Source of the DNA: a virus
Virus genome (UHGV): UHGV-0286155
Strand: one strand, 5' to 3'
Length of the DNA: 16,183 nt
Shown here: piece after piece, positions 3,538 to 12,949 of the stretch
How the letters are laid out: the number at the start of each line of letters is the position of its first letter
How positions within the stretch are numbered: position 1 is the first letter of the stretch
The notes under the pieces: generated by a model
Seen by the model: only the letters and a program-made list of their open reading frames with translations
Database searches by the model: none
What the model was told of the DNA's origin: nothing
Translations under genes and position numbers: made by a program

Positions 3538-4187
3538 GCCGCCATCTCCCTGACCAGTTTTTCCGCCTGCTGGCGAACCTGCACCAGAAACGCCTCACCA
3601 CATGCCTCAAGTTCATCGCGCCCGATGTAGCTGATTGCCGGTCCCTTCCAGGTCTTGTCGAAAACAGCAATAGCACCAGCGAAGAAAGCACCTGTCGGCA
3701 CCTGCTTCTCGTCCTTCGGGATAAACCAGGCAGGCAGTTCAAAACCAATACGCCCGCGAATAAAAGCAATATGGTCCGCATCTTCCGGCCACCACACTTC
3801 ACTGGTGGCAGCTTTGATCAGGAAAACATAGCGCCCGCCTTTATCACGCATGGCACTGGCATGTTTCATGATGTAACGCATGCCGGTGATGTATTGCCCC
3901 TCATGCTGACTGGCGCGGCTGTATGGGGGATTACCAAAGGCAGCACCTTTAAGCTCCGCAAGGCGTTCTGACCAGTCATGCGCCAGCGCGTTGTCTTCCG
4001 CCGTGTAATACGCGGCACATTTGGCGTTATCACCGTCAGTGAACAGATCCAGAACAAACGGGCCAAACAGGGTGTTAATTCCCCAGAAAATGTTGTCCGG
4101 CGTGCGCCACTGATCGCCCACTTCCTTCAGTTCATGGGCTGGTTTGTTCCGCAGTTCCACCAGTGCCTGACAATATTTATTACTCAT
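3534..4187 (-). CDS. phage-type DNA N6-adenine methyltransferase (Dam-like)
   Basis: NPPY catalytic motif (AAFGNPPYSRA) and overall phage Dam-family resemblance. The preferred start is the ATG at 4187 (MSNKYCQ...), which overlaps the upstream stop as TAATG; the track start at 4220 would overlap the upstream gene by 34 nt. Confidence 0.7.
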   Translation of the reverse strand: MSNKYCQALVELRNKPAHELKEVGDQWRTPDNIFWGINTLFGPFVLDLFTDGDNAKCAAYYTAEDNALAHDWSERLAELKGAAFGNPPYSRASQHEGQYITGMRYIMKHASAMRDKGGRYVFLIKAATSEVWWPEDADHIAFIRGRIGFELPAWFIPKDEKQVPTGAFFAGAIAVFDKTWKGPAISYIGRDELEACGEAFLVQVRQQAEKLVREMAA

Positions 4188-4677: not shown

Positions 4678-5619
4678 TCACCCCCTGAATCCTGCCGGGA
4701 TCTGGCTGTAGTCCACGTTGTCGTAACTGGATTTGAAGTACGGGTCTTCGCGTTTTTCGGTGTACGTGCTGACGGACGGTGATAAGCGCAGGGAAAGCTC
4801 ATCCCATTTTTCCCGCAACTTCGACGGGCTGAGCACGTTACGGCACCAGAACGGATCGCGGCTGACGCGGCTGTACATCTCGCAGATTTGTTTGTGAGTA
4901 CGACCATCCTGCACACACATCAGGCGAATTTCGTTTGCCCAGGCTGTCCAGTTCGGTTCTTTGGGACGAACCACCTCGCCGTCACATTCGGCGGCTTGCT
5001 CGTACAGGGCGATGATTTTTTTCCAGAGCCACTGTGCGCAGGTCAAATCATCCTGCGTTCCCCACTGGCGCTTTTTAGGGCTGAATACAACCGCATCAGG
5101 ATGGCGAGTTAAAAAATCCTGTTCATCCGTCTGCGTGTCCGGTTGCGAAGCGTCCGGACGAGAAGGTTTTTTATCTGACGGATCATGTTTTGATTTTACT
5201 GACGGATCCCCGCCAGATTCTGACGGGTGAAAACCCGCTTTTTTGCCAGATTTCGACGCATCAAATTTTGACGGGTCAGATTTTGATGCGTCAGATTTTG
5301 ACGGGTCAGAATCTGACAGTTGAGAAAATGCCGCTGCCTGAAGCTTCGCAACGTTAAGCTGATAAACATTCGACGCATTGCGGTTACCCTGGCGACGCGC
5401 CTTACGCGTTAACCAGCCTTCTGCTTCCAGCCGTGCGATAGCCGTCCTGACGGTACTCATCCCCGCGCCAATCTGACGGGCAATAGTTTCAATTGATGGC
5501 CAGCACACACCTTCGTCATTACTGAAATCAGCCAGGCGGGCCATAATTGCCACGCTGGATAATTTCATGCCTGATGCAGCGCAACCATCCCATACATAGC
5601 CGGTTAATTTAGTGCTCAT
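4678..5619 (-). CDS. replication initiator, lambda O-like architecture (N-terminal HTH, iteron-encoded linker)
   Basis: N-terminal HTH-type domain (WPSIETIARQIGAGMSTVRTAIARLEAEGWL), then a low-complexity linker SDSDPSKSDASKSDPSKFDASKSGKK encoded by the tandem DNA repeats at 5214-5321, then a C-terminal domain. It sits where lambda O sits, downstream of cro and the CII-position gene. GAGGT RBS before the ATG at 5619. Confidence 0.6.
   Translation of the reverse strand: MSTKLTGYVWDGCAASGMKLSSVAIMARLADFSNDEGVCWPSIETIARQIGAGMSTVRTAIARLEAEGWLTRKARRQGNRNASNVYQLNVAKLQAAAFSQLSDSDPSKSDASKSDPSKFDASKSGKKAGFHPSESGGDPSVKSKHDPSDKKPSRPDASQPDTQTDEQDFLTRHPDAVVFSPKKRQWGTQDDLTCAQWLWKKIIALYEQAAECDGEVVRPKEPNWTAWANEIRLMCVQDGRTHKQICEMYSRVSRDPFWCRNVLSPSKLREKWDELSLRLSPSVSTYTEKREDPYFKSSYDNVDYSQIPAGFRG
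5214..5321. repeat. iteron array, candidate replication origin inside the initiator gene
   Basis: Five tandem 15-bp units at 5247-5321 (CAGATTTCGACGCAT, CAAATTTTGACGGGT, CAGATTTTGATGCGT, CAGATTTTGACGGGT, CAGAATCTGACAGTT) plus a further copy at 5214-5228 and degenerate copies at about 5170-5207. Each unit has a TGACG..GTCA-type internal dyad. Confidence 0.55.
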
Positions 5620-5628
5620 GACCGACCT

Positions 5629-5967
5629 CTATTTCCCTGAATTTACGACGAAACTGTTCGAGCGGGCTGAAGCACTCATGCTCATAGCCTTCGCGGAGGT
5701 AGATAACTCGTTGTGTTTCCGGCTCCCAACGAATGACTCTGACGGGCACTCCGTAGTGATCTTTGAACCAGCGGTTAACTTGTCGCAAAGGACTGTCTCC
5801 TTCTGCCGGTTGAAATCACCCACAGCCCACTCAGCAAAGCTGTGGGTTACAATTTCCCTGTCACCTGGTACATTAACTGCATAGCAATACTCCACCTTCG
5901 CTTTTCCACCCGGTACAGGAAGCGCAATCAGTTGCGAGCGACGGTAGTGTGTTGTTAAACTGTTCAT
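5629..5967 (-). CDS. hypothetical protein
   Basis: 112-aa ORF in the operon orientation. Its ATG overlaps the upstream stop as ATGA and it ends 10 nt before the initiator gene's RBS. No family recognised. A plus-strand 90-aa ORF (5612..5884, GTG start) overlaps it and cannot be excluded. Confidence 0.35.
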
Positions 5968-6572
5968 GCGTTAGTTTCTCCACAGTCACGACACGCCACG
6001 GCGCCCGGAGCTGCACACTCGCGGGCGTCATTACTTTCTGAAATGCAAAAGATTTTGTAGACCAGTGCTGCATGCTCCTGCAGCTTCGAAATTGAGAGAT
6101 ACAGCTCGTCGTTAATTGCTGTCTTCTCATGCGGTTCCACCACACCGTCTTCGATTGCCGAACGAATCTGTCTGGAATAACTGCCAATCTGTTCAATGAC
6201 TTCCAGCAGGCGCTGGTTAATATCGGCGTTGTCCACATCCTCGACGTCAGGAAGAGACACAAAGACGCCATTTGCAGACTGCGCCACAGCGTCAGCAATG
6301 AAGTGAGTTCCACCAGCACGTTGCAAAATCATTGCCCATCCCAGCGGGAAAATCTGATCGCCATCGGCACGAAGGCGGTTAAATAATGCGTTTTCTGTTA
6401 CATCCAGCCAGTCAGCTGCTTCAGCGTAACCACCCGGCAACGCTGCGATAGTTTTTCTGACAGCTTTCACGTACCACTCAGGCTGTTTTTCTACTTTCCA
6501 GTGATGCTTACCCACGGTTAGCCTCATCGTTCTGTGGTTTCTGTTAATCGATTTATCCATTAGATTTTTCAT
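5964..6572 (-). CDS. CII-position regulatory protein (putative)
   Basis: ORF directly downstream of the cro-like gene. Preferred start is the ATG at 6572 (MKNLMDK...), which slightly overlaps the cro stop; the track start at 6629 would overlap cro by 77 nt. Cys cluster at the C-terminus ([14 protein letters not shown]). Function assigned by synteny only. Confidence 0.4.
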
Positions 6573-6753
6573 AAAGCTCAGGTTTAAATGGCAACCGTCC
6601 GCAAGTTCTATATGCAGCTTCTGCTGCACGTCCTTTTGGAATTAACTGGCCCGGACGGTTTCGCCACTGATAAACGGCTTCAGTTGTTATGCCGAAAAAA
6701 GCAGCAACTTTCTCAATACTGCCGAAGTAGCTTTCGATATCGTCAGTTGTCAT
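6553..6753 (-). CDS. Cro-like HTH repressor (YdaS/Cro family)
   Basis: 66 aa. HTH segment VAAFFGITTEAVYQWRN..IPKGRAAE. Divergent from the CI-like gene across a 97-bp operator region. GGAGGG RBS. Confidence 0.6.
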   Translation of the reverse strand: MTTDDIESYFGSIEKVAAFFGITTEAVYQWRNRPGQLIPKGRAAEAAYRTCGRLPFKPELYEKSNG

Positions 6754-6850
6754 ACGCCCTCCAAGCTAAGTTTTATTAGATGCTAATTACAAATCTATCT
6801 TTGGTCAATAAAAACTAAGATTACTTAGCAATTCAAGAAATGGTGCTCCT
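6754..6850. promoter_or_regulatory. divergent immunity promoter/operator region (PR/PRM-like)
   Basis: Intergenic region between the cro-like and cI-like genes. Palindromes ATTAGATGCTAAT (6775-6787) and CTAAGATTACTTAG (6815-6828). On the minus strand TTGACC-N17-TAGCAT is a candidate PR, with the first palindrome overlapping its -10. Confidence 0.5.
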
Positions 6851-7477
6851 ATGGAAACGGTTGGTCAGCGTATAAAAGCTCTGAGAAGAGTTACCGGAAC
6901 GTCCCAGAAAGAATTGGGTAAATTTTGTGGAGTAAGCGACGTTGCTGTGGGGTACTGGGAGAAAGACATCAATACCCCTGGTGGGGAGGCACTTTCGAAA
7001 TTAGCGAAGTTCTTCAATACGTCAATAGATTACATTCTTTATGGTGCTGAGTTTGAAGGCAAACTCGTCACAAACATGCGCAGAGTTCCTGTAATATCGT
7101 GGGTTCAGGCTGGGCAGTTTACTGAGTGCAGGGCAGCAGAAGTGTTTAGTGAAGTGGACAAGTGGGTAGATACATCATTAAAGATTGGTGATAACTCATT
7201 TGCATTAGAGGTTAAAGGTGACTCCATGACTAACCCTAATGGCCTCCCAACAATACCAGAAGGCGCAACAGTGATTGTAGATCCAGATGCAGAACCTCGT
7301 CATGGAAAAATAGTCATCGCTCGACTTGATGGAACAAACGAAGCTACAGTAAAAAAATTAGTCATCGATGGCCCTCAAAAGTTTTTAGTGCCATTAAATC
7401 CTCGGTATCCCAACATCCCTATCAATGGTAATTGCCTTATCATTGGTGTAGTCAAAGGAGTTCAATACGAACTCTAA
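6851..7477 (+). CDS. CI-like prophage repressor (HTH_XRE + S24 LexA-type peptidase domain)
   Basis: N-terminal HTH (QRIKALRRVTGTSQKELGKFCGVSDVAVGYWE), an Ala-Gly candidate autocleavage site (VQAGQF), the Ser motif KGDSMTNP and a downstream Lys (ATVKKLV) typical of the S24 family. Confidence 0.8.
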   Translation: METVGQRIKALRRVTGTSQKELGKFCGVSDVAVGYWEKDINTPGGEALSKLAKFFNTSIDYILYGAEFEGKLVTNMRRVPVISWVQAGQFTECRAAEVFSEVDKWVDTSLKIGDNSFALEVKGDSMTNPNGLPTIPEGATVIVDPDAEPRHGKIVIARLDGTNEATVKKLVIDGPQKFLVPLNPRYPNIPINGNCLIIGVVKGVQYEL

Positions 7478-7661
7478 GACCTCTCTTCTCTAACTAAGGC
7501 ACCGAACTAAGAAAAGTTTGGTGTTTTCTCTTGCCACAATAACTAAGTTAAGTTAGATTTTATATCAAAGATAACGAACAGGCAGGACGCCCACGAAGTA
7601 GCCGCCGGTGGCGTATGAATGACCGGATGATTCGTTAAATACTATGTGTAAGAGAGCGCAA

Positions 7662-7865
7662 ATGAACCGTTATTTCACATGCTCGTTTTGTGGCGCAAAC
7701 GAGCTGCAGGCAAAAAAAATCATCGCCAAAGGCGGAAAAGATGAAGTTGCTATCTGCTCTGAGTGCGTAGTCTTGTGTGTCGGGGCATTAATCAATATCA
7801 GCACAACTATTCAGTTCACACCAAATGAGAATGCGCCTTTAGATGCGAGGAAATCTGGAGGTTAA
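7662..7865 (+). CDS. small protein with ClpX-type C4 zinc-binding domain
   Basis: YFTCSFCGANELQAKKIIAKGGKDEVAICSECVVLCVGAL aligns from memory with the ClpX N-domain [37 protein letters not shown], including both Cys pairs. Start chosen at the ATG at 7662; the track start is 7644. Confidence 0.55.
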   Translation: MNRYFTCSFCGANELQAKKIIAKGGKDEVAICSECVVLCVGALINISTTIQFTPNENAPLDARKSGG

Positions 7866-7924
7866 AGAACAAAATGAAAGTCCAGATTTTAAACAATAAC
7901 TGTGAAGTCGTTTGGGCGTAAAAC

Positions 7925-8131
7925 ATGACCGCGCGTAGACCAAGGGAGGAAAAAGTGGGAATAGTTAGAAATCAAGCAGATATATTGAAAATCAGCTCTG
8001 AATTGCTTGGAGTTTTGAAAAGTGAGCTCACCGCACATGGCATCGAGCCCACTGACGAAAATTTAAGTTGGGTTTTGTCGATTATTCAACAATCACTCAA
8101 GCCCAGCCTCAGCAAACTTTTTATCGAGTAG
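7925..8131 (+). CDS. hypothetical small protein
   Basis: 68-aa ORF in the operon orientation. No recognisable family; not N-like, as it lacks an Arg-rich motif. Confidence 0.25.
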   Translation: MTARRPREEKVGIVRNQADILKISSELLGVLKSELTAHGIEPTDENLSWVLSIIQQSLKPSLSKLFIE

Positions 8132-8284
8132 TGCTTCGAACTTATCGTAAAGCTTGCTTATGTCGTCTATCGGGTTTTCTGACGTACTGTAATTTTTATC
8201 TGATGTCATGGCAGCAGTCTGATATGCAGTGTGAGTCTTAACCGATAGTTGGAATAAATAAAGAATTTTTTCTTCTTTGGTCAT
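8093..8284 (-). CDS. hypothetical small protein, antisense to the operon
   Basis: The ATG at 8284 is preceded by an AAGGAAA RBS. 63 aa. Its 3' end overlaps the 7925..8131 ORF by 39 nt. Confidence 0.3.
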   Translation of the reverse strand: MTKEEKILYLFQLSVKTHTAYQTAAMTSDKNYSTSENPIDDISKLYDKFEALLDKKFAEAGLE

Positions 8285-8394
8285 AACTATTTCCTTCTTG
8301 GCTATATGAAAACACCAAGATACCACCGAGCCTGAAGTGGTGAAAAGACAGGCACATAACAGCTAAGTATTTTCAACCAGAGAGAATCCTTAGC

Positions 8395-8710
8395 GTTGTG
8401 GTGAATGCGGCTCAGCGCACGCGGGTTAAGGTTGAGGCTGACAGTCGACCTTCTGTGGATACCCACCCGCCTGGTGTGCAACCTTCGCCAGGCACCGGGA
8501 GGCACCCGGCACCACAACTTTATGCTGTGTGTAGTCTTGGCGGTACCAGCTTGTACCCTTGCTTCCGGCTGGTACCGTCCTTTTTACAAAACAGAGAAGA
8601 GCATCACCGGACGACGGGCTCATAACCCAATCCATCCGGGCGGCTGCCACCGCAGGTGTTCTTCTCTGTTTTGTGGAGAAACTAACCGCCCCTACGGGGG
8701 CATTTATGGA
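8395..8710. ncRNA. candidate structured non-coding RNA locus, strand undetermined
   Basis: GC-rich stretch carrying only mutually overlapping ORFs in several frames with implausible Arg/Cys/Pro-rich products. Nested inverted repeats: GGTACCAGC/GCTGGTACC (8542-8576), a 14-bp long-range stem ACAAAACAGAGAAG/CTTCTCTGTTTTGT (8586-8599 with 8661-8674), CCGGG-AGGCA-CCCGG (8495-8509), and GCCCC-UACG-GGGGC (8688-8701) followed by AUUUAU. Confidence 0.3.
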
Positions 8711-11397: not shown

Positions 11398-11446
11398 TGG
11401 TGCCGATAATAGGAGTCGAACCTACGACCTTCGCATTACGAATGCG
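11398..11446 (-). tRNA. partial tRNA-Thr(CGU): 3' 49 nt only, att core
   Basis: The reverse complement CGCATTCGTAATGCGAAGGTCGTAGGTTCGACTCCTATTATCGGCACCA matches the anticodon arm through the 3' CCA of enterobacterial thrW as I recall it. The D-arm and 5' acceptor strand are absent; sequence beyond 11446 is unrelated. Confidence 0.75.
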
Positions 11447-11629
11447 AAGTTTTTATATTTTAACTGCTTGAACAACCATCAGAAATCACAAATTTATCAT
11501 TTTAAATCATAATATTAAAACAAAAAACCTGTTGATGTAAATTGATGAGTGTTGATGTTTATCCTTTCAATTTACTTACACCAGCCGTTACATTACTGTA
11601 AACCGTAATCCCCAACAGGAACCCTAAAA

Positions 11630-12949
11630 ATGGCGCTTTCAAGACAAAAACTAACCTTCGAACGAATTCGAAGATTTACTTTACCTGAAGGGAAAAACCA
11701 AGTTTTCCTTTGGGATACGGACGTAACAAGCTTGGCATGTCGAGCAACTCGTGGAGCAAAAGCCTTTGTATTCCAAAGCCTGTATGCGGGAAAAACCCTT
11801 CGCATGACCATTGGCAACATTAACGATTGGAGGATTGATGATGCGAGGGCCGAAGCCAGGCGACTGCAAACATTAATCGATACTGGGATAGATCCGCGTA
11901 TAGCTAAGGCGGAAAAAATTGCTGAAGCGGAATCACAGCAGGCTGAATCTCGTAAAACGAAGGCAACCTTTTCAAGCGCTTGGGAAGATTATCTTGATGA
12001 ATTGAGAACCGGAATCAGCGCAAAAACTAAACGCCCCTACTCTGCACGCTACATTGCCGATCACGTTAACTTGTCCAGTCGTGGAGGCGAAAGTAAAAAA
12101 AGAGGCCGGGGCTCAACCTCACCTGGGCCACTGGCTAGCCTGCTCGACCGACCATTATCAGAACTAACACCAGAGAACATTGCCGAATGGCTAAGTACAG
12201 AGAGACAAAATCGGCCTACCGTCACTGCTCATGCCTACCGTCTGTTGCGTGCATTCATCAAATGGGCTAATTACCAGAAAAAATATCAGGGAATAATCCA
12301 TGGCGATCTTGCACAAGATCATAACGTGAGAAAAATGGTTCCAATATCAGCGAGCAAAGCGGGAGATTGCTTACAAAAAGAACAGCTCAAAAGCTGGTTC
12401 AGTGCCGTGCGTAGCCTCAATAATCCCATTGCATCAGCCTATCTCCAAGTGCTTTTGCTCACCGGTGCACGGCGTGAAGAAATTTCCTCACTTCGCTGGT
12501 CTGACATAGATTTCAAATGGTCAAGCATGAGAATTAAAGACAAGATCGAAGGCGAGCGAATTATCCCCCTCACTCCCTATGTTTCTTACTTGTTACGCTC
12601 ACTGATGGAGATCCCTAATCGTGGTACAAACGAGGAGAATTGGGTTTTCAGAAGTAACAGCAAAAGTGGCAAAATTATTGAACCGCGTTCAGCACATAAT
12701 AGAGCATTAACTCGCGCGGAGTTACCACATATCAGCTTGCACGGATTGCGCCGTAGTTTTGGGACCCTCGCTGAATGGGTCGAAGTACCAACAGGTATTG
12801 TTGCGCAGATTATGGGCCATAAGCCTAGCGCTCTTGCTGAAAAGCACTATCGCCGCCGTCCATTAGATTTGCTAAGAAAATGGCATGAAAAAGTTGAATT
12901 ATGGATCTTAGAAGAAGCAAAAATAAAAAACAACGTTGATAAGCGTTGA
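11630..12949 (+). CDS. tyrosine integrase, P4/CP4-type
   Basis: 439 aa. The N-terminal pattern (LTFERIRRFTLPEGKNQVFLWDTDVTSLACR...GIDPR) is typical of P4-like integrases. Catalytic motifs LTGARREE, HGLRRSFGT and the Tyr in AEKHYRR. Begins about 180 nt from the tRNA fragment. Confidence 0.85.
   Translation: MALSRQKLTFERIRRFTLPEGKNQVFLWDTDVTSLACRATRGAKAFVFQSLYAGKTLRMTIGNINDWRIDDARAEARRLQTLIDTGIDPRIAKAEKIAEAESQQAESRKTKATFSSAWEDYLDELRTGISAKTKRPYSARYIADHVNLSSRGGESKKRGRGSTSPGPLASLLDRPLSELTPENIAEWLSTERQNRPTVTAHAYRLLRAFIKWANYQKKYQGIIHGDLAQDHNVRKMVPISASKAGDCLQKEQLKSWFSAVRSLNNPIASAYLQVLLLTGARREEISSLRWSDIDFKWSSMRIKDKIEGERIIPLTPYVSYLLRSLMEIPNRGTNEENWVFRSNSKSGKIIEPRSAHNRALTRAELPHISLHGLRRSFGTLAEWVEVPTGIVAQIMGHKPSALAEKHYRRRPLDLLRKWHEKVELWILEEAKIKNNVDKR

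Follow-up and report, generated by a model that had tools for sequence, protein, structure and literature searches.

Phages make small early proteins that modulate host proteases; T4 PinA and T7 gp4.5, for example, act on Lon. Lambda cIII, encoded in the operon of the leftward promoter (PL), acts on host FtsH (PMC1838920), and SPO1 gp53 acts on ClpCP (PMC6873191). None of these four proteins copies the docking domain of the protease itself. In ClpX, the zinc-binding domain (ZBD; PF06689; E. coli ClpX residues 1-60; PDB 1OVX and 2DS5-2DS8) forms the N-domain, which the enzyme requires to recognize lambda O, MuA, FtsZ and adaptors but not ssrA tags (PMC5415555; PMC7804408). Here we describe a phage gene that encodes such a domain on its own. 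It lies at positions 7662-7865 of UHGV virus genome UHGV-0286155, a CPS-53/SfV/ST64B-like lambdoid prophage of 16,183 nucleotides (nt), the whole of which we refer to as the window, and we call it the ZF gene. Its product has the C4 signature of the ClpX ZBD, the same predicted fold and the equivalent of Phe16; unlike ClpX, it has no linker and no AAA+ motor, is encoded by a phage and is predicted to be under the control of a repressor-regulated early promoter. The gene and its putative ribosome-binding site are as follows.

7662-7865, + strand: stand-alone ClpX ZBD gene (ZF gene), 67 amino acids; core residues 1-50, variable tail residues 51-67
7650-7656, + strand: Shine-Dalgarno-like AAGAGAG, 5 nt before the ATG, read from the sequence

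The open reading frame (ORF) extends from the ATG at 7662 to the TAA at 7863-7865 and encodes the protein MNRYFTCSFCGANELQAKKIIAKGGKDEVAICSECVVLCVGALINISTTIQFTPNENAPLDARKSGG. We place the start at 7662 and not at 7644 because the N-terminus MNxY(F/Y)TCSFCG is conserved in homologues and because the Shine-Dalgarno-like sequence precedes this ATG; Salmonella homologues carry AGGAG at an equal distance from the start codon. An identical ORF is annotated by the Prokaryotic Genome Annotation Pipeline (PGAP) in RefSeq as 'ClpX C4-type zinc finger protein' (WP_001083098.1). An earlier note on this DNA had recognized in the ORF the ClpX N-terminal C4 zinc ribbon without an AAA+ module, and had proposed a profile search and a structure prediction of the protein alone as checks; both agree with it. 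Pfam zf-C4_ClpX (PF06689) matches residues 6-40 at 41.4 bits (E value 1.3e-10), well above its gathering cut-off of 27. The AAA+ module is absent, the NCBIfam ClpX equivalogs TIGR00382 and NF003745 scoring 22.7-25.8 bits against cut-offs of 359-371. Residues 7-11 are CSFCG and residues 31-39 are ICSECVVLC. When the PDB was searched with the protein sequence, the only significant matches were ClpX ZBD chains (2ds5 and 1ovx; E values 2.5e-4 to 3.8e-4), and in the HMMER alignment to these chains identity spans CSFCG, K.IA and IC.ECV.LC, which is more than the cysteine ligands.

An AlphaFold2 (AF2) model of the protein has a mean predicted local distance difference test score (pLDDT) of 62, rising to 70-78 over residues 11-40. 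The predicted fold is beta-beta-alpha, a beta-hairpin followed by a C-terminal helix, as in the ZBD, and the model superposes on the solved structures 2ds5, 2ds6 and 2ds8 with template modelling (TM) scores of 0.77-0.82 (normalized to the ZBD chain), a root-mean-square deviation (rmsd) of 1.5-1.7 A and a match probability of 1.00.

The earlier note had allowed that the ORF or its paired cysteines might not be preserved in related prophages. They are preserved: C7, C10, C32 and C35 are invariant in the alignments, with the sole exception of a degenerate plasmid copy (P0008) that has lost the first CxxC, and about 20 further positions within residues 1-45 vary little or not at all. Over codons 1-45, divergent pairs of genes differ at nonsynonymous sites (pN 0.14-0.24) much less than at synonymous sites (pS 0.42-0.95), giving pN/pS of 0.17-0.33 with synonymous sites near saturation. 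The core is thus under purifying selection and the gene is real. These data bear on the view that the ORF is a decaying or chance frame without function. Some E. coli lineages do carry copies with a 1-nt indel or a frameshift, left unannotated by PGAP, and to these can be added the P0008 copy; but the selection on the core, the invariant cysteines, conservation across genera at a fixed position and the Pfam score effectively refute that view, and we regard it as very improbable. The product is a selected and probably dimeric protein, a predicted zinc ribbon that is a homologue of the docking domain at the N-terminus of ClpX.

The close family is restricted to phages and prophages of Enterobacteriaceae. 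Among 5426 complete E. coli genomes, 131 carry the gene, and it also occurs in the Salmonella phages 118970_sal3 and F1055 and in genomes or prophages of Salmonella, Citrobacter and Enterobacter. Hundreds of other stand-alone ZBD forms exist, many of them metagenomic, and these share the domain-only architecture; the enterobacterial prophage subfamily is set apart by its own signature, MNxY(F/Y)TCSFCG...AKGGxDExAICSEC, and by its fixed position as the putative first gene behind PL. ZBD-only proteins are catalogued in PHROG 5259, 20296 and 12435, of which 5259 and 20296 are labelled 'unknown function'. Neither the 67-residue form, a 121-residue form nor the two neighbouring ORFs matched anything in PADLOC-DB 2.0 at E <= 0.01. 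Our literature searches returned no characterized homologue, the family name appearing only in incidental mentions and PF06689 nowhere, and nothing relevant on ClpX decoys or phage-encoded ClpX inhibitors among the matches listed. The family is therefore already catalogued without a function, and, as the earlier note had supposed, we found no characterized system of this kind. We considered and rejected recent capture from a host clpX gene: identity to the E. coli ClpX ZBD is about 34-40%, and the nearest relatives outside the family are unrelated multi-ZBD proteins.

ClpX ZBDs also occur in other architectures in metagenomes (P0016, P0024, P0176 and P0232), including tandem arrays of two to four copies; KH-ZBD fusions also occur. 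P0232 consists of an XRE helix-turn-helix (HTH_3) domain fused to a C-terminal ZBD, and one 2505-residue metagenomic protein has 37 stretches that match the ClpX ZBD.

The ZF gene starts 185 nt after the end of cI and so, as the earlier note had it, stands immediately downstream of the CI repressor gene. That note assigned it to the slot in which lambdoid phages carry lysogen-expressed genes such as rexAB or sieB. The rexAB genes of lambda are co-transcribed with cI and occupy the interval from cI to the left operator (OL)/PL. The elements around cI in the window are arranged differently.

6766-6828: right operator (OR) region, with two operator-like sites, CTAAGTTTTATTAG (6766-6779) and CTAAGATTACTTAG (6815-6828)
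6851-7477, + strand: CI-type repressor, 208 amino acids; Pfam Peptidase_S24 96.7 bits, HTH_3 41.8 bits; 'LexA family protein' in PGAP
7496-7532, + strand: intrinsic terminator of the cI transcript, a 13-bp hairpin followed by the U-tract UUUUCUCUU; -15.1 kcal/mol, z-score -3.6 (7496-7527)
7531-7559, + strand: PL-like promoter TTGCCA-17-TAGATT, sigma-70-like, the sole plus-strand promoter-like site of the region
7543-7556: operator OL, CTAAGTTAAGTTAG, overlapping the spacer and -10 element of the PL-like promoter; third copy of the palindromic motif
7572-7637, + strand: structured leader RNA of 66 nt, directly 3' of the PL-like promoter, defined by covariation and a covariance model

One side of the prophage carries cro (6553-6753, - strand) together with a cII-like gene, genes for replication, RusA and Q; cI is on the other side, with yfdR, DUF551, xis and int. 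The cro promoter, TTGACC-17-TAGCAT (6808-6780, minus strand), is flanked by both operator-like sites of the OR region. The palindrome CTAAG-N4-CTTAG, allowing at most one mismatch, occurs at three sites in the window against 0.28 expected, and all three adjoin cI. A consensus scan found no further promoter-like site between 7560 and 7661, which is weak negative evidence. Homology with heteroimmune prophages begins at about 7572, just 3' of the PL-like promoter. Read from its sequence, the region has the anatomy of a classical lambdoid immunity region bounded by OL/PL.

If these sites are OL and PL, heteroimmune relatives should carry operators of their own both between cI and cro and before the ZF gene, and they do. 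Locus L002 has ACAACTT(TT/AA)AGGTGTT and ACATAAAGTTGT in both places, with the promoter TTGACA-17-TAAATT, and the Salmonella loci L003 and L004 have ACTTGCGCAA in both places, before the ZF gene 3' of a strong terminator. In each of L134/L136, L137/L138 and L008, a promoter close to consensus is surrounded by palindromic repeats peculiar to that type, and in L134/L136 and L008 a strong terminator precedes it; in L007 too, the ZF gene stands behind a promoter with its own operator repeats. Terminators equivalent to that of the window follow cI in L004, L134 and L008, and one is annotated in the SfV record. Locus L135 is of the immunity type of the window and has the same promoter and operator directly before the ZF gene. 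An operator-carrying promoter thus precedes the gene in seven immunity types, those of the window and of the six others (L002, L003/L004, L134/L136, L137/L138, L007 and L008), drawn from E. coli, Salmonella and Enterobacter, and in every locus the gene is on the strand of xis and int.

These results place the ZF gene, by the putative control elements around it, at the head of the early-left (PL) operon that the repressor controls, in the slot of lambda N and HK022 nun. Those two genes likewise lie 3' of a leftward promoter under operator control and of an RNA leader with the nut or put site, on the xis/int strand, although the ZF protein has no similarity to N or Nun. As the first gene of the PL operon, the ZF gene should be silent in the lysogen and switch on as soon as the prophage is induced or a cell is infected. 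The relevant cells would then be induced or newly infected ones and not resting lysogens.

We therefore reject the rexAB/sieB slot proposed by the earlier note: like rexAB and sieB, the ZF gene is next to cI and on the same strand, but rexAB lie upstream of OL/PL and the ZF gene lies downstream, separated from cI by a terminator and an operator-covered promoter, an arrangement that recurs in the comparison across the seven immunity types, and in the window also by the leader. The position that truly corresponds to rex, between cI and PL, is filled in L002 by a BRCT-domain gene (4997-5887, - strand) and in L137 by a gene for 69 amino acids (3610-3819, - strand), both on the strand opposite to the ZF gene; a lysogen-expressed function is more plausibly sought in these two than in the ZF gene.

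A function in the lysogen, as a decoy or exclusion factor of the rexAB, sieB or HK022 nun type that alters the choices of ClpXP or blocks ClpX-dependent superinfecting Mu or lambda, would suit a gene that adjoins cI on the same strand, and intrinsic terminators leak. HK022 nun, itself a gene in the N slot, is said, in work by King and colleagues from 2000 in J Bacteriol, to be expressed in the lysogen from a constitutive promoter of its own (PNun). Against such expression stand the terminator and the operator-covered promoter between cI and the ZF gene, the lack of a promoter-like site in the scan of 7560-7661, and the occupation of the true rex-like slot in L002 and L137 by other genes of opposite strand. 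In L134-L138 the start codon lies only about 35 nt past the promoter, a distance that hardly accommodates a second one. In ST64B, moreover, features 3' of cI are highly expressed in two inducing shock conditions that also give transcription of lytic genes (PMC7067206). Taken together, the evidence makes a lysogen-expressed decoy quite unlikely. The decoy idea itself is plausible when recast as an early-lytic function, as the predicted placement suggests.

What an early ZBD might do can be considered from the pocket of ClpX. There, F16 and I46 form a hydrophobic pocket that binds trigger factor and overlaps the sites for lambda O, SspB and RssB (PMC7804408). F16 aligns with F9 of the ZF protein, which is invariant across the phage family, and I46 aligns with position 42, which is mostly hydrophobic (A, T, V, I or L, and once K). 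The AF2 model superposes on 2ds8, the complex of the ZBD with the SspB tail, at an rmsd of 1.5 A. Because the similarity exceeds that of a generic zinc ribbon and the pocket residue Phe16 is retained, a ClpX-related role suggests itself. We tentatively propose that the ZF protein is an immediate-early mimic of the ClpX N-domain that interferes with N-domain-dependent recognition by ClpXP, a reading that we hold to be quite possible though short of probable.

In this mechanism, the protein would be made within minutes of induction or infection and be silent in the lysogen. Mimicking the ClpX N-domain, it would compete for N-domain ligands: SspB, RssB, UmuD, lambda-O-type initiators, MuA, FtsZ and some antitoxins. 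Alternatively, it could pair with the N-domains of ClpX. The outcome would be that the N-domain-dependent branch of ClpXP proteolysis is transiently switched off or redirected in lytic growth. Purified ZBD added in trans reportedly blocks N-domain-dependent reactions in vitro, a finding ascribed to Wojtyra and colleagues in JBC in 2003.

The ZF protein would be for ClpX the counterpart of lambda cIII for FtsH. Like cIII, PinA, gp4.5 and gp53, it is proposed to be a small early protein, though it has no sequence relationship to any of them; cIII is likewise encoded in the PL operon, and the proposed outcome is shared, namely that substrates of a protease are protected or redirected during phage development. 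If it is a mimic, the ZF protein would add one directed at ClpX to the few protease modulators that phages encode, and would be a natural, genetically encoded tool for silencing ClpXP only in the branch that depends on adaptors and the N-domain. It would also represent one more way in which temperate phages condition their host in the first minutes after derepression.

Several points weigh against the N-domain mimic. Identity to the E. coli ClpX ZBD is low, as given above, and the confidence of the AF2 model (pLDDT 62) is moderate. Tyr34 of ClpX is invariably replaced by Ala and the turn of the beta-hairpin is three residues longer, so that partner specificity may differ from that of ClpX. The ZBD is reused as a general module, in HTH and KH fusions, in tandem and alone, and homology by itself therefore does not tie the protein to ClpXP. 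Finally, the close relatives SfV, ST64B and mEp460 lack the gene, which is thus dispensable; its absence from them also means that it is not an essential antiterminator.

Some of the same observations favour a target outside ClpXP. On this account the zinc ribbon is a mere scaffold for dimerization or binding, and its likeness to ClpX reflects ancestry and not mechanism. The protein would then be an immediate-early factor for host takeover or counter-defence, with a binding partner such as RNA polymerase, nucleic acid, the division machinery or a defence protein. ZBDs that stand alone, in tandem or fused to other domains are common in non-Clp contexts (the HTH_3-ZBD protein P0232, the KH-ZBD fusions and the protein with 37 stretches), the hairpin insertion and the Tyr34-to-Ala change are specific to the family, and one paper is said to mention the zf-C4_ClpX domain in cyanobacterial sigma factors. 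What such an account leaves less well explained is identity with ClpX beyond the needs of zinc binding, including the pocket residue (F16/F9). It also has to accommodate a protein with no basic or otherwise obvious nucleic-acid-binding surface, in which the ZBD alone is conserved and the tails vary. We consider a ClpX-independent target almost as likely as the mimic.

The tails bear on a further possibility, that the protein is an adaptor and not an inhibitor: the ZBD would dock on ClpX or pair with its N-domain, and the variable tail would recruit a host or phage protein for degradation by ClpXP. Family members range from 57 to 127 amino acids, the differences lying in C-terminal tails that are highly variable and modular next to the conserved ZBD, and a short motif, (I/V)-x-F-x-x-(A/S)-P, is common to several tails. 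There is an adaptor-like precedent in SPO1 gp53, for ClpCP (PMC6873191). However, many tails resemble products of frameshifts or mosaic junctions more than conserved domains. The 67-residue form has only about 17 tail residues, predicted to be disordered in the AF2 model, and a search of the C-terminal extension of the 121-residue variant, found in E. coli Nissle 1917, returned no Pfam domain. ClpX ZBD dimers are very stable, so that their exchange with free ZBD is uncertain. We judge an adaptor to be unlikely.

Whether or not the ZF protein is an N-domain mimic, its gene occupies a variable site. Using the core of the leader RNA as a probe, we collected at least 120 further viral contigs or IMG/VR stretches. 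In 119 loci with the leader, the ORF that comes first behind it belongs to many unrelated families of small proteins; the ZF family fills the slot in 16 of these loci and the SfV orf33 type in 14. Elsewhere the slot holds an HTH_17-containing protein (mEp460), a different protein with no assigned function (ZF40) or nothing annotated (ST64B), and families of 40 and 68 amino acids are also among its occupants (L009-L133). Directly 3' of the ZF gene in the window are the following.

7874-7921, + strand: 15-codon remnant (MKVQILNNNCEVVWA, then a stop codon) of an SfV orf33-type gene, matching SfV orf33 residues 8-21
7925-8131, + strand: ORF for 68 amino acids, phrog_15476, no assigned function; next ORF on the early-left strand, without PGAP annotation

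The orf33-type remnant right behind the ZF gene indicates that a cassette was replaced or inserted at this site, and an ORF of the phrog_15476 type comes first after the leader in two other loci. We found no link between the ZF gene and any particular replication or neighbouring module, the flanking modules varying between loci. On sequence comparison, then, the slot behind PL is hypervariable and the ZF gene an optional, self-contained cassette. From this we infer that its role is accessory and directed at the host and does not belong to the core functions of the phage; such a pattern is typical of host-directed accessory or counter-defence genes. The many unrelated small genes that share the slot are what would be expected of diverse host-directed effectors, and to that extent they favour a ClpX-independent target for the ZF protein. 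The first-gene slot of the PL operon, usually preceded by the leader RNA, is worth mining for such effectors.

The leader folds into a closing stem, P1 (7574-7578 with 7631-7635), around two hairpins, an invariant one (7581-7583 with 7589-7591) and P2 (7605-7609 with 7622-7626). Both P1 and P2 show strong covariation. P1 occurs as ACGAA/UUCGU, GCGAA/UUCGC, CCACC/GGUGG and UCAUC/GAUGA, and P2 as CCGGU/ACCGG, CCUGG/CCAGG, CUACC/GGUAG, CCGAC/GUCGG, CCAGC/GCUGG and others. Of the cells in 36 distinct leader sequences, 97.4% are paired; shuffles reach 76% and slid controls 24-46%. Both sides change in 9 of the 10 variable pairs. Wobble pairs mildly favour the + strand (7 G-U against 3 A-C). The covariance model of the leader, R1, scores 91.5 bits in the window and detects a single copy in each locus, on the strand of the early-left operon.

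The leader is present in 53 phage records, in which it is mostly unannotated, and in at least 120 IMG/VR stretches. The phage records are those of Escherichia, Salmonella, Shigella, Klebsiella, Yersinia, Pectobacterium, Pantoea, Citrobacter and Aeromonas phages and of T5-like Providencia phages. A search of 7450-7950 against Rfam at permissive thresholds gave noise only and no match to the leader. Locus L008 (3870-3968) retains only the 3' half, fused to another promoter and operator set and scoring 31.9 bits with R1, and is a natural deletion variant. Since Enterobacter-type loci have the ZF gene without the leader, and most leader loci have no ZF gene, the two are independent of each other.

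By position, the leader resembles the put RNAs of HK022 (putL and putR) and the annotated putL-like RNA of HK639: it too is structured, about 65-70 nt long and directly 3' of PL (PMC9378689). All share a 5' CGAAC and a GGAUGA motif, and their conservation is independent of the protein encoded. They differ in that the leader has its closing stem around two hairpins whereas HK022 and HK639 put consist of two side-by-side stem-loops. We rejected the leader as an HK022-type put RNA: blastn against HK022 gives only chance matches of 9-13 nt, and R1 finds nothing in HK022 or HK639, nor in the HK022 immunity/put region with filters off. By analogy, a put-like antiterminator is a reasonable guess at what the leader may be. 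It is a candidate for a new PL-proximal regulatory RNA, absent from Rfam, and may be a more novel item than the ZF gene.

Put at its boldest, the proposal would make the ZF protein the first 'domain-mimic' of a host unfoldase to come from a virus, capping or out-competing ClpX N-domains and reprogramming the choices of ClpXP in lytic growth, and would make the linked leader a new, put-analogous class of RNA. This combined proposal is speculative and we hold it as doubtful. Such a domain-mimic could, for example, stabilize a phage initiator or regulator, or could block the ClpXP-dependent degradation of an antitoxin and with it abortive infection.

The remaining part of the window contains several elements of separate interest. 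One gene converges on the early-left operon.

8093-8284, - strand: gene for 63 amino acids, phrog_2605, no assigned function, WP_000159356.1; convergent with the early-left operon and overlapping the end of the 68-amino-acid ORF

A 1-kb query, of which this gene is one part, had matches in 1926 of 5426 E. coli genomes, far above the count for the ZF gene. The gene may be a lysogen-expressed moron.

A GC-rich non-coding stretch (8365-8588, + strand) separates the small ORFs from yfdR and is conserved in SfII, SfV, SfIV, mEp460, ST64B and Stx2c phages. It matches Rfam STnc100 at 43.4 bits (E value 3.7e-8), just below the gathering threshold of 47, and within it is a weak DicF-like segment (8526-8580, 19.4 bits). 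This stretch is probably a prophage small RNA inside the early-left operon.

Directly after the prophage integrase, Rfam detects a tRNA (11401-11473, - strand; 36.3 bits) that ARAGORN does not call, and beyond it is a second, P4-type integrase (11630-12949, + strand). A tRNA between two integrases suggests that two elements lie in tandem at one tRNA attachment site.

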